Below are positions 36,455-55,344 of a stretch of DNA of 64,000 nt, piece by piece (within the stretch, counting starts at the first letter, position 1; every line of letters begins with the position of its first letter). The translations under genes and the position numbers were made by a program. The notes beneath the pieces are model-generated. The model made no database searches. It worked only from the letters and a program-made list of their open reading frames with translations, and was not told where the DNA came from. This DNA is from a virus: positions 1 through 64,000 of IMG/VR virus record IMGVR_UViG_3300025276_000024; one strand, given 5' to 3'.

Positions 36455-37129
36455 ATGGCAACAATAGCAGAAGTAGTATCTAGAATTAGAGGTCAAGTAA
36501 AAGCAGGAGTTCAAGATGCTTTTGTTACTGATAGATATATCTACAGCTTAATAGAAAAGTATGCTCAGTTTTTAATGAGAAGACAAGACTATGCAAATAA
36601 ATTATTAAAATTTAATTCAGTATGGAAAACATTACCATATGTAGAATTAATTGACGTAGATAAAATAGAAGCTCATTGTGCTGGTATACAAAGTGGATGT
36701 ACAATAAAACGTACAAAATTAAAGCTACCTTCAATGTTTGAAGGGTACTGGGGTCCTTTAATCCGTACTATTAGTTCAATAGATGGATCACAAGAATTAC
36801 AAGGAACTCAACCTGGCACATATACTTCATTAACAAAAACAACTTCTTTTAGATATAATAAAACTTTATATTTTTGGTGGTTAGATGGATATATTTATTG
36901 TCCTAATATAGCATGGGATGCAATTAAAGTAGAAGGTGTATTTGATTCTGATATAACTAATTGGGATTGTGATACTGAAAATGATTGTACACCTAGGTAT
37001 AATCAAGAAATATATATACCAGAAGCATTGTTTGCAGAAATAGAAAGTCAAGTTATTGCTACTATGTCAGGTACATTACAAATACCATCTGAAGATTCAG
37101 ATAATAAACGTAACCTAGCTAGAACATAA
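36455..37129 (+). CDS. Tail ring protein
   Basis: TIAEVVSRIR..TDRYIY..IKRTK.KLP..YFWWLDGYIY..VEGVF. Confidence 0.75.
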   Translation: MATIAEVVSRIRGQVKAGVQDAFVTDRYIYSLIEKYAQFLMRRQDYANKLLKFNSVWKTLPYVELIDVDKIEAHCAGIQSGCTIKRTKLKLPSMFEGYWGPLIRTISSIDGSQELQGTQPGTYTSLTKTTSFRYNKTLYFWWLDGYIYCPNIAWDAIKVEGVFDSDITNWDCDTENDCTPRYNQEIYIPEALFAEIESQVIATMSGTLQIPSEDSDNKRNLART

Positions 37130-38108: not shown

Positions 38109-41100
38109 ATGGCAAAAAAAAAAGAATCTAATCCTACTCCTACTCCAAGAAATGGATCATCATCAGTAAATATAAATTCATTTAATAAAGGAATGAACAA
38201 GGATGTTGCTCCTTCATTTGAAAGTCAACAATCTTGGTGGCATGCACGTAATGCAGCAAATAATTCAGAAGACGGTGATTTAGGATTAATAGGTAATGAA
38301 CCATCTAACTTACAATGTGGTGTAATTCCCTATACAGTTATTGGTGCAATACATAGATTTGGTGATGAATGGATAGTTTACTCAACAGATAATATCAGTT
38401 CAGAAATAGGTAGGTTTGATGATAGTGAATGTAAGTATACTACAATAGTAAATGATCCTTGTTTAAATTTTAGTACAAAACATTTAATAACTGGTGCAGC
38501 AAAAGAAAACTTTGATTGTACGTGGGAAGTGTATTGGGATGATGCTAATAATCCATCTAGAGCATTTAATATTGATAATGTACCATATAAAAAAGTTCAA
38601 ATTACCGGACCACTTATTGATGGAGATCCATGTGTTACTTTTGAAGTTATTGAACCTAAGCAATTAAATTGTGAAGAGATTAGATTAGCTCCGTTGTTAG
38701 ATACACCGTGTGTTAAACTTACTCAAGCTACTGATGGTGGTATGATACGTAATGGTACATATCAAGCATTTATAGCATATGTAGAAAATGAACAACGTGT
38801 AACAGATTATATAGGTGTATCAAATTTACAAACTATATGGAGTCATGAAGGTGGCTCAGGATCATTAGAAATAACTTTAACTAATTTAGATCAATCATAT
38901 TTCTTTTATGAATTGATTATATTAAGAAGAAATCAAGGACAAACATCAGCAAAGAAAATTGGTCTTTACAGTACAGAGCAATCATCAATTAATATTGATT
39001 TTATTGATGAAGCATTGGTAGCCATAGATTTAAAATTAATTCCATTGCGTAGTCCTGCATATGAAAAGTCAGAATCAATGTTTGTTGTAAATGACTGGTT
39101 AATTAGACAGGGACCTACTGAACAGTTTGATTTTAATTATCAACCTATAGCAAATAATATCACAACTAATTGGGTAGTAAATCAAGTAAGTAGTAAGTAT
39201 TATATATTAGGTGGAAACAAATTAGGTTTCATGCGTGATGAACAATATGCATTTTTTATAAGGTGGATATATAATACAGGTGAAAGGTCATCATCATATC
39301 ACATACCTGGAAGAGCACCTAGAGATTATACATTACCTAGTGGTATAGATAAATTAGAAAATGAACCTATTTCTGGAGATAATACAATAGGGACTGAACC
39401 TCTTTTTCACGTTTATAATACAGCTGATGCAATATCTTTAAATATTAGTGAAGTACAAGAAGATGACTCATTAGTTATTGCAAGAGGTGAGATGGGTTAT
39501 TGGGAATCAACAGAACTTTACCCATCTAACAGACCAGATATTTGGGGTGATTTATGTGGTAAACCTATTAGACATCATAAAATGCCTGATGAATCTCTTG
39601 GCGGTTCAGCTTCACCTCTACATATAAGTACAACAACTGGAGATTTAATTAATTTAATAGGTGTTGAGTTTTCAAATATAGGTAGGCCTAAATATAATAA
39701 TGGATCATATATAGAAAATATTGTTGGCTATGAAATATTACGTGGGTCAAGACAAGGGGCAAGATCCATATTAGCAAAGGGTATGTTTAAAAACATGCGT
39801 AAATATAGAATTCCTAATGCAGAAAATTTATTAGGGAACTCTCAAGGTTTATACCCCAATTATCCATATAACTCATTACAAGATGATGTATTCTTTTTTG
39901 ATGCTGGTAATAATCCAGATGCTGAAGATACACTAACAACAGGTTGTGATAATTTTACACAATCAATAAATGCTTATCCTCCATTAAGTGGATATACTAA
40001 AGATGTATTTACATTTAGTGCACCAGATTTAATGTTTGCCAAGCCTTTTTTAAATGCTTATGAAACAAAAATATATGGAGCAATACATGGTAAAGCAAAT
40101 GGTTCATTTGTACCTTCTGAAGACCATCCACAATTTAAATTATTAAGACCCAAAGCGGCTACTCTAGCTTGTGTGATTGGTATTGGTTATGCATTAAATG
40201 CTGTACAAGGAACTCAGTCTAAGGGTTTAAACCCATTACAAGCAAATAACCTTGCAGGTGCACCTTTTGTTGGTGTAGTTCCTCCTGTGTTGTCTGTTGG
40301 TTATCCTACTATTGGTACTGCTAGTGGTGGAGGTCTTTCATTATTTAATCTTCTTCAAGGTTTATTAATGGATACTTTACTAGATGGAGTTGTTGATATG
40401 GGTGATTTATATTCTGGTGGTGTTCTATCTCAATTAGTATACCAAGCAGAAAATACAGCTAACTTAATTAAAGCTTCTGTAGTTCCTGGTGCATCAGGTG
40501 GTGGTACTACATCTAATACAACATTTGATAAACCAGAAGGATCACTACCAACACTTTTAAGAGCCTTTATAGGTATATCAATGGCTCAAAAAAATATTGC
40601 TATAGGAGGTAATGAAATTATTGATCTATTTTATAATCTTGTAGATGAAGCTGACTTTGTATATAAATATAATTCAGTAGGTTTTTATAATACTTTTGAA
40701 AAAGTTAACCGCAATAATATATTCAGAACTAAAAATCATGATGCAAATTATTTAGGTTCTTCATTTCAAACTTTTGATGGTATAAAATATAAAATTAATA
40801 ATTTATTTAGACCATCCACAATAGCTGTATCAACAGTTAATGAATTAGATAATCCACCTGTAATAGATAATTCTAGATTTTCATTAGGGGGTTATATAAA
40901 TCAAAATGGTAGTACTGTTGATTTTGAAAACAAGTATATGAAGAATCCATCTGGGGCAAGTTCAATACAAACAAATATTTCAGCTTTATATGGTGCATTA
41001 AAATATAACTTTGATAATCAGTACGGACAGCTAGATGGAGTTAAGCAAATACAGATGCGTGGTTGTGTAGAACCAATAGGAGGATTAGATAAAGACGGAA

Positions 41101-44100
41101 ATGCTATACCTGATCAATTTTTATACACAAGTAAACCTATCTTTAGTGGAGATGTTTCTATAAACAGATATACTGAAAAATGTATAATGCCAATCTTTAC
41201 AAACTTTCTAAAAGGCCAACCTAATTTTTATTCATTTGACTATAGTTTATATGTAAATATTCCTTATCCTAGATTCTGGTTGAACTCTACTAAATTTGAT
41301 ATTAGTGGTATTGCACGTGAAGTAGCAACATTAGGACTTAGCCCAGGAAGTTATGCAGATGCATTACCTACAGCAAAGTATTATTTAGATAGAGGATATG
41401 ACAACTGTCAGGGTGGTGGATTTTTTAATAGTTTATTTGGTGGTGGTGGTGACTTAAATCCAGCATGGAATATGTTGTATGCTTATATGTATACACACAT
41501 AAATGGGATAAATGAATTTTTTGTTGAGACAGAAATAAACTTAGCATATAGAGATTGGGAAGACATGCCTAGTAAAAGGTTTTATGATCCATATGAATTT
41601 AATGATTTAGGTGTATTGTTTCATCCTGATAATATTAAAGCAGATAACTTTTATAAGTATGATGATTCATTATCTGCTTCAAAGTTTCCTACACAAATGG
41701 GATCTTATGGTCAAATACAACCTAGAGATTATGATCCATACGTAGCAGCAAATTGTTATATAAGTTATCCTAAGAGATTAATATATTCTTTACAAGCTCA
41801 AGAAGAATCTAAAAGAGATTATTGGAGAGTATTTTTAAATAACAATTATAAAGATTTTAAAAATGAAGTTAGTATAATTAAACCCATAAATAAAAGTGGA
41901 GCAATTATATTTTTTCCATATCTATCACCACAAATGTTTCAGGGTTTAGATACATTAAAGACAGAAACAGATACTAAGCTTACTATAGGTGACGGAGGTT
42001 TATTTAGTCAGCCATTTCAGAATATAGCTAATGCAGATATATCTAATGAATATGGTTCATGTGAAAGTTTAAGAGGAGTTATAAATACACCTATGGGATT
42101 ATTTTTTATATCTCAACAACAAGGTAAAATATTTCAATATGCTGGTAAAGGGTTAGATCCTATATCTAATAATGGAATGAAGTGGTGGTTTAATAAATAC
42201 TTACCTTCTAGATTTATTAGACAATTCCCAGCATCTGAAAATTCACAATGGACTGATAATCCTGTTGCAGGAGTTGGATGTCAAGTAATGTATGATTCAG
42301 TAGATGATGTAGTATACTTTATGAAAAAGGATTATCAACTAAAGCCACAATTTATTGCAAGTGCAACATTTAGAGATGCTCCAACTAAACCAGTAACAAT
42401 TACTATATCAAGTAAACTAGCTGGTAGTGATACTAGAATTCCTATTGACATTGGTGATCCATTATATTTTGATGATTGTTCTTGGACGATTAGTTATGAT
42501 CCTAAATCTAAAGCATGGATTTCATTTCATGACTGGCATCCTGAATTAGCTTTACCAAGCATAAATCATTTTTTTACAACTAAAACTATTGAGACAACAA
42601 TACCTCAATGTCCTCCGGGATACAACTTTAATCCTATTACAGGTTTATGTGAGATAGGTGTAAATACATCAGAACTAGCAGATGTAATTATAGATCAAAT
42701 AGCATCTACAGTTTCAGGTGGTCCTACTGCTTGTAAATTAGATCTTGTAATATCAATGGATGTATCAGGAAGTACTATTAGTTTTGGTAGAAGACAGGCT
42801 CAACAGGCTTTTATGACTATATTATTAAATGATCCCCAAGTAGTCAACTTAATGTCTAATAGTCAAATGCAAGTTGGATTTTGTACTTGGGATAGCAGCA
42901 GTACAACATTTAATATACCTAACGGGGGGAGTACAGTAACAATGAGTCATTTAGTAACTGAAAATCAAGCTACCACCTTTATGAATAATAATTGGACGAA
43001 TGGTTCTACTAGTGTTGCATTAGGATTACAAACTGGATTTAATATACTTAGTAATGTATCAAATTCAACATTGGGTGATAGGACAGCAGATGCTGATTAT
43101 AGAGCAATACAGATTTTAATTACTGATACAACTGATGCCGCAGGAACTAATGCTGGACAAAATTATACATCTCAAGGTACTGGTACTGCTCCTAGTTATA
43201 TGTCTGTTTATGCTATGTACTGTGGAGCTTCTAGTTCTATTCCACCGACTGCAGGAGTATTAAATGATATATCTATGACTAGTGGACCTGTTAATGTTGA
43301 TCCATATCAATGGGGTATTAATGCATCAGATTCTTCTACTAGTCAAGCAGTAGCATCAGCAATTGCAGGTGCAGTATGTGGTACGGATTATGTATGTGAT
43401 TGTCCATCAGGATACACTAAAGTATTTTTTGATCCAACTACAGCAACTTATACAGCATCAAGTGGAGAATGTGATGACAGTGATAGAGCACCTGTCTGTA
43501 GAAAAGTAACATGTGATTGTCCTATATCTACAGTACCGGGTTCTGTTGTAACTCAGTCTGGTGCATGTCCTACTGGAGCAGATATATATAATTTAGATGG
43601 AACAGGTAATTGGACTGACCCAAATCCATTAGTATGTAATTATTTTTACTTTGATCAAATAGCTGCTAATTATAGAGTTGGGGGATTTTGGAGACATAAT
43701 GTAAGATGTGATTCATTTGTAAATTATTATGGTGAGGATTATCCTTGGGAAATAGATTTAATATCTAACACAGGACAAGCAGTTAATACAATAAGAAGTT
43801 TTGAATATCAATTAGAAACATATGTATATAAAGGAGATCCTCAATATAACATGTGTGGAGGAGATAAGTGGGAAGATTTAGATTATAATTTTGATGCATC
43901 TATTATATATAATAATGATCAAGTATCAGGACTACTAGTTTTAAATACTCAACCAGTTAATAATCCATGGGGTAATTTAACTTATCCTATTGTTGGTTTT
44001 AATAATATTGATATACTAGTTTCTAAAGTTGAACATAAGTTTAGATTTAATCAGTTTTGGGATATTACTAATGATAGAGGAGAATTTACAAATGTAGAAC

Positions 44101-44297
44101 AATCTATATTTGATACATCATGTAATGGTTATGTAAGACCATTAAATTCCATAAATCTAAATTATAATAAACCACAAACACAACGCAAGAAATTTAGACA
44201 CTACTCTAATAATATTATATTACGTAGAAATGTATCTGGAAATAGAAAGATGTTGCTTAGACTAAATAATACTAAACTTTTACTATCACAAAGATAA
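38109..44297 (+). CDS. Tail stabilisation/muzzle protein (P22 gp10-like) with vWA insertion
   Basis: FNKGMNKD, FMRDEQYAF, GYWESTE.YP, IRHHKMP, WTISYD..WISFHDW motifs; 2062 aa. Confidence 0.88.
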   Translation: MAKKKESNPTPTPRNGSSSVNINSFNKGMNKDVAPSFESQQSWWHARNAANNSEDGDLGLIGNEPSNLQCGVIPYTVIGAIHRFGDEWIVYSTDNISSEIGRFDDSECKYTTIVNDPCLNFSTKHLITGAAKENFDCTWEVYWDDANNPSRAFNIDNVPYKKVQITGPLIDGDPCVTFEVIEPKQLNCEEIRLAPLLDTPCVKLTQATDGGMIRNGTYQAFIAYVENEQRVTDYIGVSNLQTIWSHEGGSGSLEITLTNLDQSYFFYELIILRRNQGQTSAKKIGLYSTEQSSINIDFIDEALVAIDLKLIPLRSPAYEKSESMFVVNDWLIRQGPTEQFDFNYQPIANNITTNWVVNQVSSKYYILGGNKLGFMRDEQYAFFIRWIYNTGERSSSYHIPGRAPRDYTLPSGIDKLENEPISGDNTIGTEPLFHVYNTADAISLNISEVQEDDSLVIARGEMGYWESTELYPSNRPDIWGDLCGKPIRHHKMPDESLGGSASPLHISTTTGDLINLIGVEFSNIGRPKYNNGSYIENIVGYEILRGSRQGARSILAKGMFKNMRKYRIPNAENLLGNSQGLYPNYPYNSLQDDVFFFDAGNNPDAEDTLTTGCDNFTQSINAYPPLSGYTKDVFTFSAPDLMFAKPFLNAYETKIYGAIHGKANGSFVPSEDHPQFKLLRPKAATLACVIGIGYALNAVQGTQSKGLNPLQANNLAGAPFVGVVPPVLSVGYPTIGTASGGGLSLFNLLQGLLMDTLLDGVVDMGDLYSGGVLSQLVYQAENTANLIKASVVPGASGGGTTSNTTFDKPEGSLPTLLRAFIGISMAQKNIAIGGNEIIDLFYNLVDEADFVYKYNSVGFYNTFEKVNRNNIFRTKNHDANYLGSSFQTFDGIKYKINNLFRPSTIAVSTVNELDNPPVIDNSRFSLGGYINQNGSTVDFENKYMKNPSGASSIQTNISALYGALKYNFDNQYGQLDGVKQIQMRGCVEPIGGLDKDGNAIPDQFLYTSKPIFSGDVSINRYTEKCIMPIFTNFLKGQPNFYSFDYSLYVNIPYPRFWLNSTKFDISGIAREVATLGLSPGSYADALPTAKYYLDRGYDNCQGGGFFNSLFGGGGDLNPAWNMLYAYMYTHINGINEFFVETEINLAYRDWEDMPSKRFYDPYEFNDLGVLFHPDNIKADNFYKYDDSLSASKFPTQMGSYGQIQPRDYDPYVAANCYISYPKRLIYSLQAQEESKRDYWRVFLNNNYKDFKNEVSIIKPINKSGAIIFFPYLSPQMFQGLDTLKTETDTKLTIGDGGLFSQPFQNIANADISNEYGSCESLRGVINTPMGLFFISQQQGKIFQYAGKGLDPISNNGMKWWFNKYLPSRFIRQFPASENSQWTDNPVAGVGCQVMYDSVDDVVYFMKKDYQLKPQFIASATFRDAPTKPVTITISSKLAGSDTRIPIDIGDPLYFDDCSWTISYDPKSKAWISFHDWHPELALPSINHFFTTKTIETTIPQCPPGYNFNPITGLCEIGVNTSELADVIIDQIASTVSGGPTACKLDLVISMDVSGSTISFGRRQAQQAFMTILLNDPQVVNLMSNSQMQVGFCTWDSSSTTFNIPNGGSTVTMSHLVTENQATTFMNNNWTNGSTSVALGLQTGFNILSNVSNSTLGDRTADADYRAIQILITDTTDAAGTNAGQNYTSQGTGTAPSYMSVYAMYCGASSSIPPTAGVLNDISMTSGPVNVDPYQWGINASDSSTSQAVASAIAGAVCGTDYVCDCPSGYTKVFFDPTTATYTASSGECDDSDRAPVCRKVTCDCPISTVPGSVVTQSGACPTGADIYNLDGTGNWTDPNPLVCNYFYFDQIAANYRVGGFWRHNVRCDSFVNYYGEDYPWEIDLISNTGQAVNTIRSFEYQLETYVYKGDPQYNMCGGDKWEDLDYNFDASIIYNNDQVSGLLVLNTQPVNNPWGNLTYPIVGFNNIDILVSKVEHKFRFNQFWDITNDRGEFTNVEQSIFDTSCNGYVRPLNSINLNYNKPQTQRKKFRHYSNNIILRRNVSGNRKMLLRLNNTKLLLSQR

Positions 44298-47200
44298 TGG
44301 GAAATAAAAAAAGCACAGGACTACCAGGAGGACCAAATGAATTTCTAAAAGATATTACACAACATATATCTGTAGATGGTTATAAACGTTATAGTGAAGA
44401 TGTAAACAATCCTTATAATGTTATTGAGTCAGGTAATATAACTATGGAAGATGTAGATTTTCCTGTTATGGGAACAGATAACTTAGGTAATAGTCAAATG
44501 ATGACACCTGGTAATAACTATCAGTTTCCAGGTGACAAAGTGTTTGAAATACCCATGGCTCAATATGGTATTAAAAATCAATACCCACTTCCAAAGAGAA
44601 ACGGTATTAGAGAGAACTATGATGCAGAAGGAAATGTCAATGGTGAGTCTTCTCATATAATGAGAACAGAAACTTTAGATGAAGTTAATTGGTTTTCTTT
44701 TCCTACTTTATTTCAAGATGAAGATGGTACTTGGGTTGACATGTCTAAAGAGGCAGAAAAAGACTGGAGACCTGCATATGAAGAAGCCAAAAGAAGAGGA
44801 GAAGTTATAGAGTTTGGTGAAGATAAAGATGCTGCTTTTAAATTTGGAGAAGGTTCTTGGAAACCTAAAATGAAACGTGGAGGTGGTTTACTAAATAAAA
44901 CCATGTCTTGTAATAGCTGTGGTTGGGAATGGAAAGCAGCAGATGGTGGAGCTGATGTATCTACATGTCACAAGTGTGGTGGGAGCGCATTACCTAAAGC
45001 TCAGTTTGGAAACAATGGAGAACAAACATTTTTACAAGCTATTACTAATCCAATTAGAAAAGCAGTGGCTGATAATATTTATCCTTATACTTATATGGAT
45101 CCGGTTGATAGGTTTTGGAATGCAATGAAAGGTGATAAAAATACTCATGATAATAGAAGTGATAATGCTAATGAAAACCCTGCATGGATGAATGAGAGGA
45201 CAGATCTTCTAAATTTATATATGGGTCAACCTCAAAAACATAATACAATAGAAGAGTCTCTTTATAAACCAACTAAGTCTAAAAATCCAGATGCAACTTA
45301 TTATACTTCTAAACAAACTGAAAAATCACTTATAAAGATGCTTCAGCGTAATGGGTGGAATGATTTTGATACATTAAAGAATTTTGGTGGGGTTTTAGGT
45401 CAGTTTAAAGTAGACAAAGGTGAAGATGAAAAAGGTAAGTATATATCATACTATGATGTGTGGGATGTAGAACCTTTAGATAATGTATTGTCAAAAGACA
45501 TGCAAAGCAAATTTGGAGTAAATGCTCCTGAAATATATGGTAGAATATATATAGATGATGTAAAAGATGTTCCAGCATACAGTAAAACTTTTGAAAGAAG
45601 TAAATTACCTGAAGGTCAGTACGGTGGCCGTTTTATGCAAGATGCTGGAGAAACTGAATTTGAAGATAATATCCAAACTGTACAATTACCTGAAGTAACA
45701 GTAACTGGAAATAAAGAAAAAAAAGGTTTTGATTGGAAGAATTTACTTAACAATACACTAAACCCTTTATATATTGCAGATAATGCATTACAGCTTTTAG
45801 GTACACCTGCTAATTTAGTTAGAGAAAGTATAGAAGGTATTAGTGGTAAAGGTGATGGTAAATTTAATTGGGGTAACATAGTACCTGATGTATATGGTAC
45901 TACTATACTTGATGATGATGCTAAACAAAAATCAGTATCACAAACTTTAGGTGTAGATAATTTTTGGGGAGGATTGGCACTTGACATGCTAACAGATCCT
46001 ACTACATATATTGGTGCAGGTATAGTAAAAAATCTTGTAAAAACTGGAGGTAAAAAAACAATACCTTCTGTATTAAAAGCTATTAAAGCTCCAATTAAAA
46101 AACAACTTAAAAAAATACCAAGAAAAGTAAACACACCTATTGTAGGTACAGACATGGTAATGACTACTAATTCTAAAATAGGTGAACTTGTTGATAAAAC
46201 AGGTATACCAAAAATGTTTTGGCCTAAAGGTTTTAACTACGGACCTGATGAATTTGGTAGAAGGTTTGTTGCAAGTGCAACTAATGAAAGTGGAGATATT
46301 GTTGATTTATCTAAATATACTGATGAAGTAGGTGATTATTTTTCTTTTGACAATGCCTTTGTAAAAAACCCTTTTACTGCTGGAAGAACAATGAATGCTA
46401 TGGAAGAGCTTGTACCTAAGTATGGTATTATGAAACAAAACACTTTAACAGGTTCATTAAGTGAAGATTCATTTAGTATGGCGTTAAACCGTTTAAGGAA
46501 CCCAAAGAAATTTTCAGATGCAACAGACTATGGACAAACCACTTTCTTAAATAGATCTGGTACTAATAGAACTATTGCAGACGGACCTGCAAGTAATTTT
46601 TTAAAAGATAAAGGTTTATTTGATGCTAGTGAAGTTAAAGCATTAGAACTTAAGTATGGTAAAATATTTGAACGCTTACAAAATAAAGGATTGTTAAATG
46701 ATGAGTTCCGTGGTTTAGGAATTAGAGGTGTAAAGTTAGATGGGTTAGCAGATGAAGTTTATCAAGTAGGTGTACCAAATATAGCATTGCAAAAACTATT
46801 TCAAGATGGTGGTGGTATAAGCCCTGATGTTTTATATAAGCAAGCGTTTATTGAATCTAGCTTAGATCCAAATGCAGCAAATGAAAAAGGATACAAAGGT
46901 TTAGGACAAATAGGTAGTGATATAATTGAAGATTATAAAAAAGCAACAGGTGTAGAGGAAGTAGATCCATTTAATCCTAAACAAAATAGTGATATACAAA
47001 AATGGTCAATGAATGAATTATATAACTCTTCATTTATAAATAAAGAAGGCCAGTTAGATTCTGTTAGATTAGCTAAAACATTAGCATCTTACAATTGGGG
47101 TAGAGGTAATGTTAGATCCTTATTAAATGAATTAAAAGAAGAAGGTGTAGATATATATAACTCAAGTGATTGGACATCCAGATTACCAAGGGAAACACGG

Positions 47201-49576
47201 GAATATATAGATATGATTCTTAACAATGCAGATACTGAAGGAAGACCTGATGTACAGGAAAATTTTAATAAAGTAAATACAGATGAAAAATATAAACAAT
47301 ATAAAGATTTATATACAATGCAATATGGAGGAGAAGACTTCCAACCTTATGATACTTCATTAATACCTGAATTTGCACCAGTTAATGAAGTAGATAAATA
47401 TATTGGTCCTTATAAAAGTGATTATACTCCAGTAGAAGGAGAATATGGTTATGACCCAACTAAAGAAGTAAAAACTAAACCTAATAGTAGAACATATAAA
47501 GTAGAAGCTGGAGATAACTTAACAAGAATAGCAGAAAAATATGATACTACAGTAGATGAAATTGTAACTCTAAATAATATTGACAACCCAAGTCAGATAA
47601 ATATTAATCAAGAAATTATTTTACCTGAGAGTAAAACTAAGTTTGCTGTTTATAATGTTAAGGCAGGAGATACATTAGGTAGAATAGCTAAAACATTTGG
47701 TACATCTACTAGAAAATTAAAAGAAGCTAACTCTCTTAGAGATATTAATAAAATTAATGTTAATCAACAATTAAAAATACCTCAAGAATCATATGAGCAA
47801 TTAGATGAAGTTAAAGAAAGTTGGATTGATGTAGATGTTTTAGATCAAGATAGAATGATCATTAATAGTGATGGATCAGATGAAGATATTATTAAAAAAT
47901 CACAATTAGTTAATGACCCTAATTCTCCTTATGTTATAGTAAATAAAAAAACAAAACGTTTAGAAGTTTGGAGAGGTGGTAAATCTATACTAGACTTTGA
48001 AGTACTAACTGGTGCTAATGAAGGTGACGCACAAACAGTAACTAAAATGTGGGATCTTAATGGTGATGGTATAATTACTGATGAGGATAAAAGAAATGGT
48101 AAATGGATACCTAATTGGGCTGCAGGAAATAAAAATACTGGGGCAGGTAAATTTTATATAAATGCTAGTTATGAAGACTCACCTAATAAATATGGTGGTA
48201 AAGGTGTACCTTCTTTTAATTTATTTACTGATGGTACTGACATAGATGTAGCAACAGCAATACATGGGCCTACTGCAAATAGAACTGGATTATTTGATGA
48301 TAATAATTTAGAAAACAATAAAGCAAGTAATGGATGTATAAATGGTCAATGTACTGATATGCAAGCATTATATGATTTAGATTTACCTAAAGGTACTTCA
48401 GTATATATTTTACCAGAAGATGAAGGTAATCAATTCCAATGGGTAGATGGTGAAGCGGTTATGAGAATGTCAGGTGAAAATAGAAAGAAGTATGGTTCAT
48501 CATATTTAGATTCACAGGGTAATAAACAAACAAGTCAAGGTTCTAACTATGCTACAAACACATTAAACTATAAACCAATTAGACCTGTATTTAATACAGA
48601 ACTCTTTGAAAAAGAAGTATATAATGAATCACGTATTGGAGATTATTTTACTTCTGATACTAGTGACAAACAAGAATTTGAAACAACAACAAAGCCCTTT
48701 ATAAATGCTTTGGTTGCAAACAAACAAAAAATCATGGTTACTGCTAGTATACCTAGTGATGTATATAATGATATAGCTAGAATAGCTTTTGGTATATATG
48801 GTAACGAATCTAAATTTGGTGATACACACAGTGGTTCTGGAAATCTTTTAAGAGGAGCTCAGAAAAAAGTAGCTGATATGAATAAAAAAGGTGAGTTACC
48901 TGTTATAGGATCTACATCTATGTTACCTACTGTAACTTCTTCACCAGATGTATTTAAAAAATATGATGGATATTCATTAGATAACATTACAAGTGCTGAG
49001 CCTTTCTATGAAATAAATGCAAGAGGAAATGATAACAGTGTTGGTCTAACACAATTAAGATGGTCTAATGTAGCTAATGAAGGTCTCACTAATGAAGAAA
49101 TAATTGCAGGTAAAGAATCTGATTTACTTAAACAGTTTTATGAGTTTGATATAAAATCAAATAAAGATTTATTAGATCCTGAAAAAGCAGCAATAGCAAC
49201 AGTTCTTAGATTGGCTTTTTTAGCTAATAATAGGAAGGGTGTAGATAGAAACAATTTATTTGAAACATTACCTAGACACTGGGGAGGGTCTAGTAAAGAT
49301 GGTGGTAAAACATATACTACCAATGTTATGAATAATGCTAAATATTTAAAATTTCAACAACTAGATAAGTATTTGCCTGGGTTTAAAAGAGGTGGAGAAA
49401 AACAAGATCTAGAAATGTACAAAGGTTATATGGAAGGTCTATATGATGGTACAGAAAAAGAAGTTGAAGCAAAGAATTTATATGATAAGCTTAATAGGCT
49501 TCATTATAATGATGCTAAAACCCTAGGTAACATGAGTCCTCCTAATTATATTATGACTCATTTGTATAAACCTTAA
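44297..49576 (+). CDS. Multidomain ejected/cargo protein: Zn ribbon, 2 lysozyme-like transglycosylases, 2 LysM, L,D-transpeptidase-like
   Basis: CNSC..CHKC; IESS..GLGQ..SYNWG..ETREYI; two Y.V.AGD.L.RIA LysM; AIHG..SNGCIN; NESKFG..SVGLTQ..DPEKA. Confidence 0.88.
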   Translation: MGNKKSTGLPGGPNEFLKDITQHISVDGYKRYSEDVNNPYNVIESGNITMEDVDFPVMGTDNLGNSQMMTPGNNYQFPGDKVFEIPMAQYGIKNQYPLPKRNGIRENYDAEGNVNGESSHIMRTETLDEVNWFSFPTLFQDEDGTWVDMSKEAEKDWRPAYEEAKRRGEVIEFGEDKDAAFKFGEGSWKPKMKRGGGLLNKTMSCNSCGWEWKAADGGADVSTCHKCGGSALPKAQFGNNGEQTFLQAITNPIRKAVADNIYPYTYMDPVDRFWNAMKGDKNTHDNRSDNANENPAWMNERTDLLNLYMGQPQKHNTIEESLYKPTKSKNPDATYYTSKQTEKSLIKMLQRNGWNDFDTLKNFGGVLGQFKVDKGEDEKGKYISYYDVWDVEPLDNVLSKDMQSKFGVNAPEIYGRIYIDDVKDVPAYSKTFERSKLPEGQYGGRFMQDAGETEFEDNIQTVQLPEVTVTGNKEKKGFDWKNLLNNTLNPLYIADNALQLLGTPANLVRESIEGISGKGDGKFNWGNIVPDVYGTTILDDDAKQKSVSQTLGVDNFWGGLALDMLTDPTTYIGAGIVKNLVKTGGKKTIPSVLKAIKAPIKKQLKKIPRKVNTPIVGTDMVMTTNSKIGELVDKTGIPKMFWPKGFNYGPDEFGRRFVASATNESGDIVDLSKYTDEVGDYFSFDNAFVKNPFTAGRTMNAMEELVPKYGIMKQNTLTGSLSEDSFSMALNRLRNPKKFSDATDYGQTTFLNRSGTNRTIADGPASNFLKDKGLFDASEVKALELKYGKIFERLQNKGLLNDEFRGLGIRGVKLDGLADEVYQVGVPNIALQKLFQDGGGISPDVLYKQAFIESSLDPNAANEKGYKGLGQIGSDIIEDYKKATGVEEVDPFNPKQNSDIQKWSMNELYNSSFINKEGQLDSVRLAKTLASYNWGRGNVRSLLNELKEEGVDIYNSSDWTSRLPRETREYIDMILNNADTEGRPDVQENFNKVNTDEKYKQYKDLYTMQYGGEDFQPYDTSLIPEFAPVNEVDKYIGPYKSDYTPVEGEYGYDPTKEVKTKPNSRTYKVEAGDNLTRIAEKYDTTVDEIVTLNNIDNPSQININQEIILPESKTKFAVYNVKAGDTLGRIAKTFGTSTRKLKEANSLRDINKINVNQQLKIPQESYEQLDEVKESWIDVDVLDQDRMIINSDGSDEDIIKKSQLVNDPNSPYVIVNKKTKRLEVWRGGKSILDFEVLTGANEGDAQTVTKMWDLNGDGIITDEDKRNGKWIPNWAAGNKNTGAGKFYINASYEDSPNKYGGKGVPSFNLFTDGTDIDVATAIHGPTANRTGLFDDNNLENNKASNGCINGQCTDMQALYDLDLPKGTSVYILPEDEGNQFQWVDGEAVMRMSGENRKKYGSSYLDSQGNKQTSQGSNYATNTLNYKPIRPVFNTELFEKEVYNESRIGDYFTSDTSDKQEFETTTKPFINALVANKQKIMVTASIPSDVYNDIARIAFGIYGNESKFGDTHSGSGNLLRGAQKKVADMNKKGELPVIGSTSMLPTVTSSPDVFKKYDGYSLDNITSAEPFYEINARGNDNSVGLTQLRWSNVANEGLTNEEIIAGKESDLLKQFYEFDIKSNKDLLDPEKAAIATVLRLAFLANNRKGVDRNNLFETLPRHWGGSSKDGGKTYTTNVMNNAKYLKFQQLDKYLPGFKRGGEKQDLEMYKGYMEGLYDGTEKEVEAKNLYDKLNRLHYNDAKTLGNMSPPNYIMTHLYKP

Positions 49577-49606
49577 ACCCTAAAGATTAGTGAATCTCCC
49601 TAATTA

Positions 49607-49617
49607 TTTGTATATTA
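49607..49617 (+). promoter_or_regulatory. TTTGTATATTA motif
   Basis: Exact copy 19 nt before GTG 49637. Confidence 0.65.
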
Positions 49618-49636
49618 ATAATATAATTATATCAAC

Positions 49637-52348
49637 GTGGATTTAAACAAAATAAGTGTAAAACAGCAAGGTGGACAAATGATTCCAGGTGAACCTGGTA
49701 TGCAATCACAACAACCTATGCATCAAATGCCTGATGGTTCAATGATGCCGGGTGCAACACATGGTGAACAACCTATGATGGGAGCTCAAGAGGAAATTGA
49801 CCCTCAAGTAATGCAAATTACAGAATTATTTAACACATCAATTCAAGAAGGTAATAAACCACATGATGTAGTTATATCTTTGATTGAACAACAAGTAGAT
49901 CAAAATCTTATAGGTCAAGCCCTTATGCAACTTGGTATGGAACAAGAAGCAATTGTGCAATTGTTTCAGGAAGTACAACAAATGCAACAACCTCAAGAAC
50001 CATCAGCTGAGCAGATCAATAATAATCCACAACAGATTTCAAGGGCAGAAGCTATACAAGAAGAAGCTCCAGGTATGGACATGAATATAACTTCTATAGA
50101 TCAAGCTAAGTCTGGTATAGAAATTAAGCCAGAGAACAAGGGAAAGTTTACTAGATGGGCTAAAGCCCGTGGTATGACCGTTCCTGAAGCTGCTAAGAAG
50201 GTTATGTCAAATACTAAGGCTTACCCACCATCTGTAGTTAAGATGGCTAATTTTGCAAAGAATGCAGCAACTTTTAAAAAACAAGAGGGTGGAGCAACAG
50301 ACTATACAGAAGGGGTAAGACAAAGAGAAGGTTCTTATAATCCTCCTAATAGAAAGTATACTTTAGATCCAAGATTTAAAGCACAGACAGGTACAGAAAC
50401 TTCTACAGCTAATACAGGAACACAGGGTCAGGAGAATCTCAACATGATGAATGCTATTACAGCAGGGAAAGTAAATTTTACTGACACAAGTAAACCTAAA
50501 CCAAAAGGACCAGGTTTTATTGAGGGTTTAGAAAATGAAGGTATTCTAGAGCCAGGACCAATGTATGTCAATCCTGCTATATATAATCAAGGCAAATTTA
50601 ATTTGGGTAATGCAGCTAATGCTCTACTTGGTGGTTATGAAGATATGTTTAGTGGAAGAGACACAGATGGTGATGGTGTTAAAGATGGTTCATTTAGAGA
50701 TTGGAAAGGCAAAACAATTAAAAATAAAATGAACAAAGTTGCTAATGCAACATATGATTTAGAACTTAATTTAAGTGATGAAAATAAAACTGCTGCCAAA
50801 AATTGGTGGGAACAGTTTAAAATAGAAAACCCTGATGAAACTCAACAAAAAGATTTATTGGGTAATATTATACAAACAGAAACTGAAAAGCAAATCAATA
50901 AGGCAAATGCACCAAGTGGATTATCAGATGTTTCTGCTAAATTAATAGAACAATGGAAAGCTGGTTCTGCTGCTACAAAAGCATATATTGAAAGTATATT
51001 AAAACAACAGGGAAAAACTATACCAGCTGAAGAAGAAGTTGAAGAAGAAGTTGAAGTAGAGGTAGAAAAAGAAGAAGTATTAAGAAATGGTGGTTCATTA
51101 CCAAGAGCTCAGTATAGTTTTCCAGATGGTCCAGGTAGCTATGATGGTAGCTATGGTGGTGGTAAATATACTTTTCCGGATGGGTTTGACTCTAGCACAA
51201 TGGACTTTAGTAATTACTTTAAACAATTTCAAACAACTGATTATAATAGAGATACTCGTAATGCAGCAGATGCTGTTTTACAATCAGCAAATCCTACATT
51301 AGGGCCTACTCCACTACAACAGCAAACCAATCAAATGATGCAGAACTTAGCATCAGGACCACAAAATGTTAGCACTAAGGCAAAAGAAGAAAAAGGATTA
51401 GTAGAAGAAGTAAAACCTGAAACTGCAGAAGATCTTTACAAAAAAATAGATCAAGGAAGTTTAGATGTAAACTATGGTGGTGTTGGTGGATTTATTGATA
51501 GAGTTAAAAATGGCAAAGTTGCAACAGCTTTTGGAGATGTAAGTGATTTTCTTGTAAAAGGTGCAGGTGTAGTTAATGATTATTTTGATGAAGTAGAGCA
51601 AGAAGAAGCTATGCAAGATATGAGAGTTGGTTTGTCTGCTGATAATATATATGGAACTAAGACAGATGCATTTAATAAAAGAGGTACCTTTGATATTAAT
51701 ACTGGGATAATGGGTAGTGAAGGTGATGCTACTACAGGATTATATATGAGCAAAAAAGGTGGGGGTGTTAATAACCCAGGCTTTAAAGCATTGCCACCAG
51801 AAGCGCAACATAACATACTTAAGTTTATGCAAAATGCAGGTGAGATAGTTGAAGTTCCTGCCGAGGAAGAGCAATTAACTGTAGCACAAGATACGTTACA
51901 ACCACTGCCAAAAGAATTTAGAGAAAGTGAACTAGGAAAACAACTTTATAATTTAAGTCAACCATCACAAGAAGAAGTAATGTCTGTATGGGATCAAGCT
52001 AAAAATATTGATTCAATAGGTACCGGTTTAGATTTCTTTTCAGAAGTATCTAAAAAAGATTTACAACGCCTTTTACAAGAAGCTCAAATAGAAAAGCAAG
52101 ATGTAAGAGATTATGTTTATGATCAACCTTTTTATCAAGATGCTAGTGGAGTAAGTAAATTTGGAATTAGATCAGCAATGAAAATTAAAGGATTAAAAAA
52201 AGGGGGAGAAGCTGCGTACTTAGCAAATAGAGATAGAGTTATAAAAAGAGAAATGGCTAAAGCACAAGGTGGTGGTGAAATAGTACAAGTAGATTCAAGA
52301 ATGTTGGCAAAATTAATTGCAGCTGGAGCTGACATAGAAAAATTATAA
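49637..52348 (+). CDS. Modular low-complexity cargo protein
   Basis: GTG start; Q/M-rich segments, IEIKPENKGKFT..ANFAKNA mini-domain, many xQxGG motifs. Confidence 0.75.
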   Translation: MDLNKISVKQQGGQMIPGEPGMQSQQPMHQMPDGSMMPGATHGEQPMMGAQEEIDPQVMQITELFNTSIQEGNKPHDVVISLIEQQVDQNLIGQALMQLGMEQEAIVQLFQEVQQMQQPQEPSAEQINNNPQQISRAEAIQEEAPGMDMNITSIDQAKSGIEIKPENKGKFTRWAKARGMTVPEAAKKVMSNTKAYPPSVVKMANFAKNAATFKKQEGGATDYTEGVRQREGSYNPPNRKYTLDPRFKAQTGTETSTANTGTQGQENLNMMNAITAGKVNFTDTSKPKPKGPGFIEGLENEGILEPGPMYVNPAIYNQGKFNLGNAANALLGGYEDMFSGRDTDGDGVKDGSFRDWKGKTIKNKMNKVANATYDLELNLSDENKTAAKNWWEQFKIENPDETQQKDLLGNIIQTETEKQINKANAPSGLSDVSAKLIEQWKAGSAATKAYIESILKQQGKTIPAEEEVEEEVEVEVEKEEVLRNGGSLPRAQYSFPDGPGSYDGSYGGGKYTFPDGFDSSTMDFSNYFKQFQTTDYNRDTRNAADAVLQSANPTLGPTPLQQQTNQMMQNLASGPQNVSTKAKEEKGLVEEVKPETAEDLYKKIDQGSLDVNYGGVGGFIDRVKNGKVATAFGDVSDFLVKGAGVVNDYFDEVEQEEAMQDMRVGLSADNIYGTKTDAFNKRGTFDINTGIMGSEGDATTGLYMSKKGGGVNNPGFKALPPEAQHNILKFMQNAGEIVEVPAEEEQLTVAQDTLQPLPKEFRESELGKQLYNLSQPSQEEVMSVWDQAKNIDSIGTGLDFFSEVSKKDLQRLLQEAQIEKQDVRDYVYDQPFYQDASGVSKFGIRSAMKIKGLKKGGEAAYLANRDRVIKREMAKAQGGGEIVQVDSRMLAKLIAAGADIEKL

Positions 52349-52350
52349 TT

Positions 52351-55344
52351 ATGGCAAAAATTAAAATAAATAAATTACCACAAGGTTTTAGTATCCGTAA
52401 TGGAAATGTTGTAGAAGACAATACTATGAAAGATGGTGGAATGACTACAGGTGATCAAGCTGATTATGGTTTGGTTACAACTCCACAGGCATACTATGGT
52501 GAGACTAATTTTAACAATTCACAAGATGAATCAGTTAGATACAGTTTATCAAGTGTACCTAGAGAAGATGCAAATATAGAAGCAGAAGGTGGAGAAACAG
52601 TATTAACTGATTTGAATAATGATGGTACATTTGGTTTATATGACATACAAGGTCCTAGGCATGGAAGTGGTGGTGTTCCAATGTTTTTGCCTGATCAATC
52701 ATTTATTTTTTCTGATACTAGAAAACTAAAGTTTACTAAAGATGAAATGAATGAGTTTAATGTAGGAGGTAGTAAGAAAACCCCTGCTAAAATATCTAAG
52801 AAATTTGGACTGCAAGATTATTATGCTGAATTAGATTCACAATATGCTGATAACATATCTGCAACAAGTGCAGAGTTAATGTTAAAGAAAAACATGAATG
52901 ATTTATCTAAATTAGCATTTGTACAAGAAGCTAAAAAAGATTTTTCTGATGGTGTACCTTTAGCATCACATCCTTATTTAGTTTCTATAGGGGAAGACCC
53001 AATAGAGTTTACAGCTAAAGTAGAAGAAATATCAAGGAAAGAAGCAGAGGCCAAAGCACTAGCAGCATTACCCATTGAGCAACAGCAACAGATAATGATG
53101 ATGCAACAAATGATGGCTCAACAAGAACAACAACAGGGTATGCAACCACAAGGTATGCAACAGCAAATGCCACAACAAGGTATGCCTTCACCTATGGAAG
53201 AATTTATGCCTCAAGTAGGTGAGCCAGGTTTAGCTATGGAAAACAATGCTATGTTAGGAACTGCAATGTTTGGTTCTGAGTTAGGAGATTTCTTAACTAA
53301 AGCACAAGGGGGTGAGGAAATAGTATATGAGACAGTAGATACTGGAGATACTAATGATGGAGGTGTAACAACAGTTAATGATGGGTTTGGTTCATATTAC
53401 GTACCTCCAACTAGTGCCGCTGAAGAAGGTAAGTATTATCTAAATAAAAACACTGGTCAAGGTTATCAATTTACAAATGGAAAGTATGTTGAAGTAGAAC
53501 AGGTTACTCTTGATAGTGACAATAAAGTAGTCAGACCTCAAGTAGAAGTAGAAGAAACTTCTGAGGAAGTTGCATCAGGACCCACTAATGACGTTGCTGT
53601 GGAAGCTGTAACAACAGATAAAACTGTAGAGGCTACTGATAAACAAGTAGAAACTGTTGTTGATTCTGGGGGTAACAAAAACCCTTATAAAGCAGGAAGT
53701 GAAAAAGCTATAAAGTTTGATAAATTTATTGCTGATGGATATACTCCTACTATAGTAAAAGATGGTAAGAAGAGTAAAATATCTTTTGTACGTGAGGCAA
53801 AAGATGGTAGAACAATAAAAGGAGCTACTGAGGTTCAGGTATTTGATCAAGATAAAATAAAGGGTGCAGGTGGTTTAGGTGATACATATACTCCTGATAT
53901 TAGAGCTCAAGAAGAATTAAATAATGATCCTGATGTTGGTGATGTAGCTACATTTATATCTGGTAAGTTTTCTGGTAATAAATTACCTGACACACAATCA
54001 AGGAATACTGATGGTTTTGGATATGGTTCAGATATGTTTTCTAGTGAAGAATCTGAAGAAGATTTTTATTACAGAAATCAGACTGTTATAGATGAATTAA
54101 AAGCAGATGGTGTTGACTTCCAGTTTAACATGGATATGAAAGATCCAAACTATGATGCAAATTGGAGAGGCTTTCAAAACAAGTATGAAGAGAAAAGAAA
54201 AGAATACTTTGAGAAAAAAAATGTTCAATATATACCATACTTCTTTACAGATGAAGTATTACAAGAAAGACTTAAAAATGATCCTGATACTTATGATACA
54301 GATGGAGATGGTAAGTTAGATAAAGAATGGAAAAAAAGAAGGTTTGATGGTAAGAGAGGTGGTTATACTGTAAATGCTCCTGGGTTTGATATGAATTATC
54401 AAGCAAGAGATGAGCAGTTTATGGAACTTGATGAAGAACCACCAGAAACCAAAATACCACCAGTAGTCAAACCACCACCAAAAAAAGAATGGTGGAAACA
54501 AGATCAAAATAATATTCAAGCTTTAAATAATATTGATGATGAATTGTACCTGCCTTGGGCACCACAATTAGAAGATCAAAAAATTGATTATGTTTTGGAT
54601 GATTATACAGGCCGTGTTAATGCTAACCTTGCAAGTCAAAATACTATGGCTCAAGCATTAGGGGCATATGGTCCACAAGCTATTGCAAGAAGTAATATTC
54701 AAGGAAAAACTTTAGATGCTAATGCAAAAGCTATAAATCAAGTAAATCAAAACAATGTTAAAACAATGAATAGAGTAGCAACTATGCAACCTCAACTTGA
54801 TATGAAAGTTGATATGGCAAACAATGCTACAAATAAACAACTGTATGATGATACTACAGTAGCTCTTCAAAATGCTAATAACTTTGATAATTGGAAGACT
54901 GGTAAAATGAATGATTTATATAATGCTGGAATAACCAATGCAGCAAATACTTATAATATGAATCAGCTATATGATTATTATAATGTAAATACACTAAAAG
55001 GTGGGGATGTTGAATTTGGCCCTAATGGTAAAAAATTAATGAAAGATTCTTCTGGTAACTCAGCTCAGCAAAATATTGAGAATTACCAAGAGCTCCAAAA
55101 ACTAATGGGTAAAGATGAAAAAGGTAATCAACAGCAAGTTCCTGAATGGTTATTTAATCAAACTTATGGTACTACTCCACCAAATGCAAGTAGAACAAAT
55201 GGTCAAAATGAATTATTAAATAATTCAGGAGTAACTGGATATGACGCAGCTGGTAATAAAGTTGGTGGAGCAAGAAAAGGAAAAGAAATAAAGAAGTTAT
55301 CAAAGTGGGCAGTACCTTTTTACAGTGGTAAAATGGGATTATAA
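52351..55344 (+). CDS. Cargo protein (EAEGGE..GPRH..GG family)
   Basis: NIEAEGGETV..GPRHGSGGVP..IFSD..TPAKISK N-domain; N/Q-rich coiled C-term. Confidence 0.75.
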   Translation: MAKIKINKLPQGFSIRNGNVVEDNTMKDGGMTTGDQADYGLVTTPQAYYGETNFNNSQDESVRYSLSSVPREDANIEAEGGETVLTDLNNDGTFGLYDIQGPRHGSGGVPMFLPDQSFIFSDTRKLKFTKDEMNEFNVGGSKKTPAKISKKFGLQDYYAELDSQYADNISATSAELMLKKNMNDLSKLAFVQEAKKDFSDGVPLASHPYLVSIGEDPIEFTAKVEEISRKEAEAKALAALPIEQQQQIMMMQQMMAQQEQQQGMQPQGMQQQMPQQGMPSPMEEFMPQVGEPGLAMENNAMLGTAMFGSELGDFLTKAQGGEEIVYETVDTGDTNDGGVTTVNDGFGSYYVPPTSAAEEGKYYLNKNTGQGYQFTNGKYVEVEQVTLDSDNKVVRPQVEVEETSEEVASGPTNDVAVEAVTTDKTVEATDKQVETVVDSGGNKNPYKAGSEKAIKFDKFIADGYTPTIVKDGKKSKISFVREAKDGRTIKGATEVQVFDQDKIKGAGGLGDTYTPDIRAQEELNNDPDVGDVATFISGKFSGNKLPDTQSRNTDGFGYGSDMFSSEESEEDFYYRNQTVIDELKADGVDFQFNMDMKDPNYDANWRGFQNKYEEKRKEYFEKKNVQYIPYFFTDEVLQERLKNDPDTYDTDGDGKLDKEWKKRRFDGKRGGYTVNAPGFDMNYQARDEQFMELDEEPPETKIPPVVKPPPKKEWWKQDQNNIQALNNIDDELYLPWAPQLEDQKIDYVLDDYTGRVNANLASQNTMAQALGAYGPQAIARSNIQGKTLDANAKAINQVNQNNVKTMNRVATMQPQLDMKVDMANNATNKQLYDDTTVALQNANNFDNWKTGKMNDLYNAGITNAANTYNMNQLYDYYNVNTLKGGDVEFGPNGKKLMKDSSGNSAQQNIENYQELQKLMGKDEKGNQQQVPEWLFNQTYGTTPPNASRTNGQNELLNNSGVTGYDAAGNKVGGARKGKEIKKLSKWAVPFYSGKMGL

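Follow-up and report, generated by a model that had tools for sequence, protein, structure and literature searches.

Three adjacent open reading frames (ORFs A, B and C) of an uncultured marine crAss-like phage are punctuated by a short peptide ending in paired glycines, which raises the question of what this peptide marks and what recognises it. The stretch analysed, hereafter the window, comprises the first 64 kb of the 114,829-bp IMG/VR virus record IMGVR_UViG_3300025276_000024. By its capsid, portal, ring and RNA-polymerase markers the phage is a crassvirus (Crassvirales), and A, B and C are probably virion cargo (ejection) proteins, their packaging being judged from synteny: they sit between a 2062-amino-acid (aa) protein at the muzzle position and the polymerase proteins, and occupy the slot of C1 and C2 (gp45 and gp46) in ΦcrAss001. 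An earlier reading of the bare sequence (the original prediction) had listed copies of [AFML][QKR]xG in these ORFs and proposed them as a maturation-protease site or capsid-loading tag that allows shuffling of injected domains. Our analysis revealed that a Lys/Gln-x-Gly-Gly seam peptide is real and that A, B and C each consist of a string of independent, swappable modules, with the seam marking the leaders and most of the joints. The peptide is apparently previously undescribed: literature searches returned no description of a junction motif, and none is given in Iyer et al. 2017, Drobysheva et al., the ΦcrAss001 atlas or a 2023 review.

All 20 strings listed in the original prediction were found in the translations where it had placed them. 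The pattern as it was written is looser than the true signal, and its enrichment is only marginal; five of the listed strings (GQYGG, KQQGG, KQEGG, SKKGG and AMFG) fall outside it. Against 1000 composition-preserving shuffles per protein, A contains 8 copies vs 4.4 expected (67 shuffles reach this count), B contains 7 vs 3.4 (48 shuffles) and C contains 5 vs 3.1 (183 shuffles). The core [KQR]-x-G-G, in contrast, is enriched ~5-fold, with 10 copies vs 2.1 expected in A and 7 vs 1.5 in B, and exceeds every one of the shuffled proteins in both. C alone does not reach significance (3 vs 1.35 expected), and in the muzzle-position protein, D and E the counts match expectation. Genome-wide, A, B and C hold 20 of the 41 [KQR]xGG copies and account for 3,659 of ~36,000 aa (~10% of the proteome). 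The narrower form [AFML][QKR]xGG occurs four, three and one times in A, B and C, respectively, and in none of the other 27 ORFs of the window, and all five genome-wide copies of the variant [KM]AQxG are in these three proteins. The consensus is K-K-[QK]-x-G-G-E, with the variants [KM]-A-Q-x-G and [MK]-Q-x-A-G. Among relatives of A and B, the residues around GG are preferentially K at -4/-3, Q/K at -2, E/Q/D at -1 and E at +1, preferences that are missing from control proteins. The earlier remark that the motif was not noticed in capsid or tail proteins stands; tail fibre and muzzle-like proteins that are richer in Gly lack it. Three further [KQR]xGG hits in A (aa 1227, 1300 and 1669) lie inside folds, namely YkuD and the C-terminal domain, and are conserved in close relatives only; these are chance hits, and the original prediction had left them unlisted.

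In A, the seam copies stand at the edges of recognisable domains, and Pfam confirmed that the Zn ribbon, the SLT domain and the LysM-YkuD block are each flanked by motifs, as had been claimed (Table 1). The homologues of A range from ~400 to 2276 aa, and all of them keep the N module (1-91) and the C module (~1700-1756), while the interior modules (Zn ribbon, 453-595, SLT and LysM-YkuD) are present, absent or permuted. In two lineages the module 453-595 is found in gene B instead of A, again with seam motifs on both flanks. The sites kept in relatives of A include PMAQxG (86-91), LPKAQxG (~234-238), the copy that follows SLT and the one that precedes the C module; the counterpart of 1008-1012 reads YQYGG, FRDGG or KQ[FY]AG. 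When the distinct internal borders of high-scoring segment pairs (HSPs) were compared with the seam positions, 39% of those in A fell within 6 residues of a motif vs 9% expected (P<2e-4), and 35% vs 11% in B (P 4e-4); for C the coincidence was not significant. Part of this coincidence is technical, because conserved anchors attract alignment ends. None of the 79 related loci examined carries an A-B or B-C gene fusion, and the fission point inside E has no motif. A split B gene in one locus (L061) was considered as a fission at a seam and rejected, as the frameshift lies away from any motif.

Homologues of B, of which there are at least 590 in marine metagenomes, carry on average 4.8 motif copies in 822 aa among the 120 listed. 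Across the 79 loci, the density per 1000 aa is 5.2 copies for B, 2.6 for A and 1.8 for C, in comparison with 0.5-1.1 for the flanking giant proteins. At an overall identity of 35-55%, six to seven of the nine B sites and those of C remain conserved. Conservation of the B sites was scored in up to 35 diverse sequences, most of which keep 9-13, 157-160, 215-219, 248-252, 705-709, 731-735 and 876-880. The module that starts at 157-160 occurs alone in other phage contigs (L062-L082), and at the other end of the protein the 23-aa helix peptide is nearly invariant, as are residues 885-903. The AlphaFold2 (AF2) model of B has a mean predicted local distance difference test (pLDDT) score of 47 and shows small helical modules in a mostly disordered chain. 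All motif sites are in stretches with pLDDT<50, and six of eight border directly on a folded module, so the proposed comparison with predicted domain boundaries places the B sites in low-confidence linkers adjoining folded modules. In C, the family alignment shows that the N domain (31-316) and the C part are conserved, with the middle (~322-480) being hypervariable. Its first site has the family form [MK][KRQN]xGG (aa 26-30), and at 305-321 Q319 is invariant, G321 is kept in ≥90% and MA..G.E is retained. Taken together, the sites at homology-block borders, the modules that shuffle with their flanking motifs and the low-confidence linkers support the view of the seam as a border between plug-and-play modules.

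Two further features accompany the seams. A, B, C and ΦcrAss001 gp45 each begin with a short basic peptide that ends in GG. In addition, ~30 kb downstream there are three tiny basic ORFs of 81, 101 and 75 aa (genome 84498-84743, 86336-86641 and 86666-86893), which are built from 2-5 copies of [MFY]-x-x-G-G at intervals of 9-24 residues and adjoin a head-fibre-like gene and a holin-like (GTA-holin-like) gene.

Table 1. Seam sites, modules and genes of the window (positions in window coordinates; residues in protein coordinates)
Feature	Position	Strand	Residues	Remarks
A: GLPGG	44318..44332	+	8-12	end of conserved basic N-terminal leader (NKKS.GLPGG then PNE); kept in nearly all A homologues
A: PMAQYG	44552..44569	+	86-91	end of constant N module; 31 HSPs end at aa 91; PMAQxG kept
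A: MKRGGG	44870..44887	+	192-197	directly before Zn ribbon; HSP starts/ends cluster at 192/197
A: KAQFG	44996..45010	+	234-238	directly after Zn ribbon; 13 HSPs end at ~aa 240
A: GQYGG + MQDAG	45614..45649	+	440-451	upstream border of module 453-595
A: FQDGGG	46799..46816	+	835-840	directly before SLT; HSP starts at 840; sequence varies in relatives
A: MQYGG	47318..47332	+	1008-1012	end of SLT module; HSP ends at 1013
A: FKRGG	49382..49396	+	1696-1700	start of constant C module; HSPs start at 1696-1704 in nearly all homologues; xxGGE kept
B: KQQGG	49661..49675	+	9-13	end of N-terminal leader NKKSVKQQGG; GG in 30/30
B: AKSG	50105..50116	+	157-160	start of most conserved B module; identical in 33/35
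B: KQEGG	50279..50293	+	215-219	GG in 31/35; 29 HSPs end at 219; insert modules follow
B: KAQTG	50378..50392	+	248-252	final G in 31/33; insertion just before in 31 sequences
B: LRNGG	51080..51094	+	482-486	lineage-specific; GG in 8/32
B: SKKGGG	51749..51766	+	705-710	GG in 34/35; border of pLDDT<50 and folded 711-732
B: MQNAG	51827..51841	+	731-735	MAYGG in most relatives; helix 721-732 ends here
B: LKKGG	52193..52207	+	853-857	lineage-specific
B: AQGGG	52262..52276	+	876-880	directly before C-terminal 23-aa helix peptide; GG in 32/33
C: MKDGG	52426..52440	+	26-30	end of N-terminal leader MAKIKINKLP...; G29 and G30 invariant in 10/10
C: AMFG + KAQGG(E)	53263..53313	+	305-321	border of conserved N domain and hypervariable middle
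A: constant N module			1-91	
A: Zn ribbon			205-228	between MKRGGG 192-197 and KAQFG 234-238
A: module of unknown function			453-595	
A: SLT			840-947	between FQDGGG 835-840 and MQYGG 1008-1012
A: 2x LysM			1055-1162	block with YkuD, between 1008-1012 and 1696-1700
A: YkuD			1211-1371	block with 2x LysM, between 1008-1012 and 1696-1700
A: constant C module			1700-1756	
ORF A, modular cargo protein (probable)	44297..49576	+	1759 aa	Pfam; mosaic among 52 homologues
ORF B, cargo protein (probable)	49637..52348	+	903 aa	GTG start; largely disordered with small helical modules
ORF C, cargo protein (probable)	52351..55344	+	997 aa	family alignment
Cargo protein E (probable), N-terminal part	58787..64000	+	4639 aa	full gene at genome 58787-72706
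Probable muzzle protein, by position (after ring protein 2)	38109..44297	+	2062 aa	virion protein; motif-poor control
Tail ring protein 2	36455-37129			PF25702 CrAss_Ring_2, E-value 1.3e-17
Crassvirus major capsid protein	14732-16351			PF23898 Crass_capsid, E-value 4.5e-30
P22_portal	10481-13231			Pfam; also 22% identical to ΦcrAss001 gp20, E-value 1e-31

Selection on the motif acts at the protein level, and its simplest reading is that one common partner recognises it. We hypothesize, with a probability of roughly 0.4, that this partner is a protease that travels with the cargo and cuts at the motif; this putative cutting is only marginally more probable than an uncut docking handle or hinge. 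The partner would be a lethal-factor-like zincin (MPTase) domain of E, the 4639-aa RNA-polymerase cargo protein; this domain would cut the strings A, B and C into separate modules after head loading or during ejection, and the basic N-terminal leaders ending in GG would act like the T4 capsid-targeting sequences. GG-ended leaders and tiny ORFs made of motif only are features expected of cleaved substrates. If this is correct, the proposed cutting would explain why the leaders and the tiny motif-only proteins exist, why GG is invariant, why a zincin is co-packaged and why gp45 is found at the two locations described below. The extension to crassviruses at large, in which the zincin would cut A, B, C and gp45 into free modules within the virion, either in the head or upon ejection, is more doubtful; in that case the two gp45 locations in ΦcrAss001 would reflect distinct fragments instead of a single chain that passes through the portal.

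BLASTP indicated that E is a fusion of ΦcrAss001 gp47 and gp50 (E aa 3336-3661 matches gp50 1237-1496, E-value 1e-15) and that the 1948-aa protein next after it matches gp49. The RNA-polymerase motif DFDID (aa 3648, genome ~69728) and the zincin motif HEAFH (aa 2163-2167, genome ~65273) of E both lie beyond the window. Among 140 E representatives at ≤50% identity, HEAFH is kept in 98%; in the downstream E2226-E2227...A2230-D2231 (E-E-x-x-A-D) both Glu are kept in 99% and A/D in 95-96%. The two motifs form a gluzincin signature. The same HEAFH is present at aa 2157 of gp47, a protein detected in ΦcrAss001 virions (PMC10172136). The AF2 model of the zincin region has a mean pLDDT of 57; Foldseek returned no match for it, and the best VIA-align matches, all within noise, were the metal-dependent hydrolase 3dl1 (Z 5.1), anthrax lethal factor (Z 4.2) and PPEP-2 (Z 3.6). 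This candidate zincin domain is the best candidate and the only co-packaged one; HEIKH at E 1049 was rejected as a catalytic site because it is not conserved. A second, less likely candidate is a putative DUF2201 metallopeptidase with a vWA domain, observed beside a MoxR-like AAA ATPase in the replication arm (genome 99288-101729, minus strand). MPTase domains have been proposed to process polyvalent cargo (Iyer et al. 2017, PMC5512222), and the same processing was proposed for crAss RNA-polymerase polyproteins (Drobysheva et al.).

The homology of B to gp45 of ΦcrAss001 allowed the seam to be compared with a solved particle. Residues 151-215 of B are homologous to gp45 364-425 (BLASTP 35% identity, E-value 7e-4; hhalign probability 75%, E-value 2.5e-5), and KKQEGG of B aligns with NAFGG (424-428) of gp45. 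As gp45 has A-[FY]-G-G repeats of its own (4 copies vs 0.1 expected), the seam extends beyond the marine clade. The Pfam family crAss_CARG1 (PF25725) spans gp45 424-555, and the portal-bound cryo-EM segment is 425-552 (PMC10172136), with one A[FY]GG copy at its start and the following copy (560-563) shortly beyond its end. The copy at 207-210 precedes the start of the tail-barrel helix 214-245 by 4 residues; both resolved pieces, which lie in two compartments 420 Å apart (PMC10172136), thus begin at or just after a copy. In the same run in which gp45 and gp46 matched strongly, B and C gave no match to PF25725 or PF25712 at E-values up to 10; in a separate Pfam scan, A gave none up to 0.01. A resemblance of the C N-domain to the portal-binding domain was considered and dropped, since the C family and gp45 have no significant match. 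The search for gp45 homologues returned only proteins that are 96-100% identical.

The published matrix-assisted laser desorption/ionization (MALDI) peak lists of ΦcrAss001 virion gel bands 1-10 (Shkoporov et al. 2018) were matched to theoretical tryptic masses. Band 3 was best matched by gp50 and gp47 (47 and 42 peaks), band 4 by gp49 and gp44, band 5 by the portal (gp20) and bands 6-9 by gp26, gp22, gp25 and gp23, which indicates that the polymerase cargo (gp47, gp49 and gp50) runs at full length, as do the portal and gp44. In the bands of ≥70 kDa, gp45 (91 kDa, ~12 copies like the portal) was never above chance. Its absence there is suggestive and fits a cut gp45; as negative evidence from partial data it is also a weak point of the case for cutting.

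Several observations weigh against cutting. No prohead, clan-CE or C39 protease was found in the ~50 ORFs scanned with Pfam (some small ORFs were outside the scan), and the genome search for a protease that the original prediction had proposed returned no adenain/African swine fever virus (ASFV)-type or classical prohead protease in these ORFs; many of them have no match at all, including a 436-aa ORF between portal and capsid. None of the scanned ORFs of the structural region matched a peptidase family. The zincin-bearing proteins themselves have no motif excess, and with gp47 running at full length there is no sign that the zincin is active in the ΦcrAss001 virion. The motif is degenerate, with three or four forms. 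Some conserved copies precede Pro, as GLPGG-P in A, and Pro after the site is disfavoured by many proteases. To our knowledge, the ejection proteins of podoviruses (T7, P22 and N4) are not processed. Finally, in the ΦcrAss001 cryo-EM model the gp45 chain is continuous from A425 through G427-G428 into the portal-bound domain (PMC10172136); AFGG 425-428 being ordered and continuous, this speaks against a cut after GG in this homologous copy.

The last observation suits an uncut docking handle or hinge, that is, a short linear motif retained in the chain, which we regard as quite possible. As a handle, it would bind a repeated site (portal wing, tail-barrel rings or capsid interior), and as a hinge it would be a flexible joint; in either case, the cargo could be loaded in sequence and would pass through portal and tail one module after another. 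The ordered gp45 copy is the homologue of B 215-219, the tail-barrel helix starts shortly after another copy, and the authors' model of ΦcrAss001 gp45 is one chain spanning portal and tail (PMC10172136). The full-length gp47, gp49 and gp50 in virions and the lack of a dedicated maturation protease gene among the ORFs scanned point in the same direction, and many copies per protein together with tiny copy-only proteins suit multivalent binding. Yet pure hinges rarely keep their sequence so far, whereas GG, K/Q at -2 and E at +1 are kept here. The 12-30-residue leaders that end in the motif are left unexplained by a handle, the conserved co-packaged zincin domain is left without a role, gp45 was not seen at its full-length size in the re-analysed gel bands, and no bound motif peptide has been reported on capsid or ring proteins.

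A motif without any partner is improbable. In such a case, the seam would be structural punctuation, a helix C-cap plus glycines that isolate folding units, kept because the cargo must unfold and refold, with its border placement due in part to GGN-GGN microhomology recombination. Gly is the commonest helix C-cap residue, two to three of the nine B sites are right at predicted helix ends (731-735 and 876-880), and conserved anchors that attract alignment gaps inflate the breakpoint statistic. However, most sites in the AF2 model of B follow coil and not helix, the N-terminal leaders and tiny ORFs have no fold to cap, and K/Q at -2 and E at +1 are unneeded for capping. Recombination fares no better, as the copies share ≤8 nucleotides and differ at synonymous codons; the codon differences indicate that the conserved signal is peptide and not DNA, so that a repeat or recombination signal in the DNA was rejected. 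An origin by chance, or from the composition of low-complexity proteins rich in Gly, Lys and Gln, to which the Q/M/P-rich stretches in B and C and the lack of significance of C alone might point, is refuted by the shuffles of the same composition that never reach the counts of A and B, by the motif densities in relatives, by positions conserved across hundreds of them and by the Gly-richer tail fibre and muzzle-like proteins without the motif.

Among known systems, gp45 (C1) of ΦcrAss001 (Bayfield et al. 2023, PMC10172136) occupies the same genomic slot, downstream of the ring and muzzle genes and upstream of those for the RNA-polymerase cargo. Like A, B and C, it has a basic N-terminal leader ending in GG, and its repeats lie at the edges of its two resolved segments and of the Pfam domain; its motif is A[FY]GG vs [KQ]xGG(E) and KAQxG here, and, unlike gp45, the cargo here is spread over three genes and includes cell-wall enzymes. 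Neither a motif nor module shuffling or cutting is described in the ΦcrAss001 paper (PMC10172136). The polyvalent proteins of phages and conjugative elements (Iyer, Burroughs, Anand, de Souza, Aravind 2017, PMC5512222) are delivered together with DNA and combine many domains in one large chain; among them are virion RNA polymerases fused to lethal-factor-like HExxH domains and sometimes to transglycosylases, and autoprocessing by the MPTase was proposed. E resembles them with its HEAFH...ExxxD beside DFDID, and A with several unrelated effector domains (SLT, 2x LysM, YkuD and Zn ribbon) in one polypeptide. That study defines domains and architectures but no junction peptide, recognition or cleavage motif, and here, unlike in polyvalent autoprocessing, the motif-bearing A, B and C and the MPTase-bearing E are separate polypeptides.

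In T4, φKZ, 201φ2-1 and SPN3US, internal and ejection proteins carry a short motif, with multiple sites per substrate, and core proteins are chopped to peptides; propeptides of 10-20 residues at the N-terminus direct proteins into the head (PMC5694885). The recurring short motif, the short leaders and the multiple sites are shared with A, B and C. The motifs of the T4/φKZ type, however, end in Glu (L/I-x-E, S/A/G-x-E or A-x-E) and not in GG, and their herpesvirus-assemblin-like serine protease is encoded beside the head genes and also cuts the capsid protein, whereas none was found in the ORFs scanned here and the capsid protein lacks the motif. Cutting is proven in the T4/φKZ type; here it is only proposed. 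The original prediction had drawn its analogy from adenovirus and ASFV. Adenain cuts at (M/I/L)XGG-X and (M/I/L)XGX-G, and ASFV pS273R at GG-X, so that these Gly-Gly-type sites in virion core proteins, including small basic ones, come in two consensus forms, as here. The analogy fails in register: the hydrophobic residue stands at P4 for adenain, and here one position further upstream at P5 (Φ-x-x-G-G), three residues before the first Gly (M-K-R-G-G, F-Q-D-G-G and M-Q-Y-G-G). Adenain sites do not feature K/Q at -2 or E at +1, and the viruses are unrelated. The original prediction is partly supported: the placement at module borders holds, and a maturation-protease site and a loading tag are about equally probable. 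Polymorphic toxins also use a short peptide (VENN in CdiA, PxxxxDPxGL in Rhs, the latter being a cleavage site as well) at the border of constant and exchangeable cassettes; they have one border and a variable C-terminal toxin, in contrast to the many borders, constant ends and interior cassettes here.

Crassviruses are among the most abundant gut phages and are common in the sea, and several megadaltons of protein are loaded and injected. The seam motif predicts where such cargo proteins are cut or docked, explains the swapping of cell-wall enzymes and other modules between cargo genes, and offers, for ΦcrAss001 gp45, an alternative to the threaded-chain model that can be tested. If a processing code is true, any seam-flanked domain would become an injectable effector, and with a loading or processing tag foreign proteins could be put into phage particles, similar to the use of the T4 capsid-targeting sequence.

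B had no homologue among cultured phages (tblastn, GenBank phages), and A matched GenBank phages by its LysM domains only. As a single-protein query against viral contigs, B gave matches limited to the Gln/Met/Pro-rich run at its N-terminus, the only part of it that matches unrelated contigs; sequence searches of solved structures returned no match for B or C. Low-complexity runs rich in Gln, Met and Pro were observed beside seams at window 53071-53250 (C aa 241-300) and 49700-49800 (B N-terminus). The same region of B holds a His/Met-rich mini-module, HQMPDGSMMPGATHG (window 49718-49792, B aa 28-52), that is missing from most B homologues. Most of these homologues have a His-rich module (EF.PHFMY...H...GY.H) after KKEEGG, which this phage lacks; the His-rich mini-modules of the B family may be metal-binding cassettes.

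Elsewhere in the window, the portal N-terminus has a seam-like appearance (MQMKNG-AKAEGG-P, 10481-10540). An amidase_2 gene with a PG_binding_1 domain (endolysin-like, 4058-5119) lies far from the holin-like gene, and a DNA-repair exonuclease gene (phrog_704, 34600-35823) is inside the structural block. The nearest cultured phage by the capsid protein (28% identity) is Leptolyngbya phage Lbo-JY46, a possible experimental model for the seam motif. In this phage (PP438436.1, 77867-82844), a 1654-aa protein is followed by proteins of 495, 674 and 484 aa that carry LQAGG, RQNGG, FQTGG and FQQGG, one of them with the N-terminal MKIRIIGLPKAQIG.

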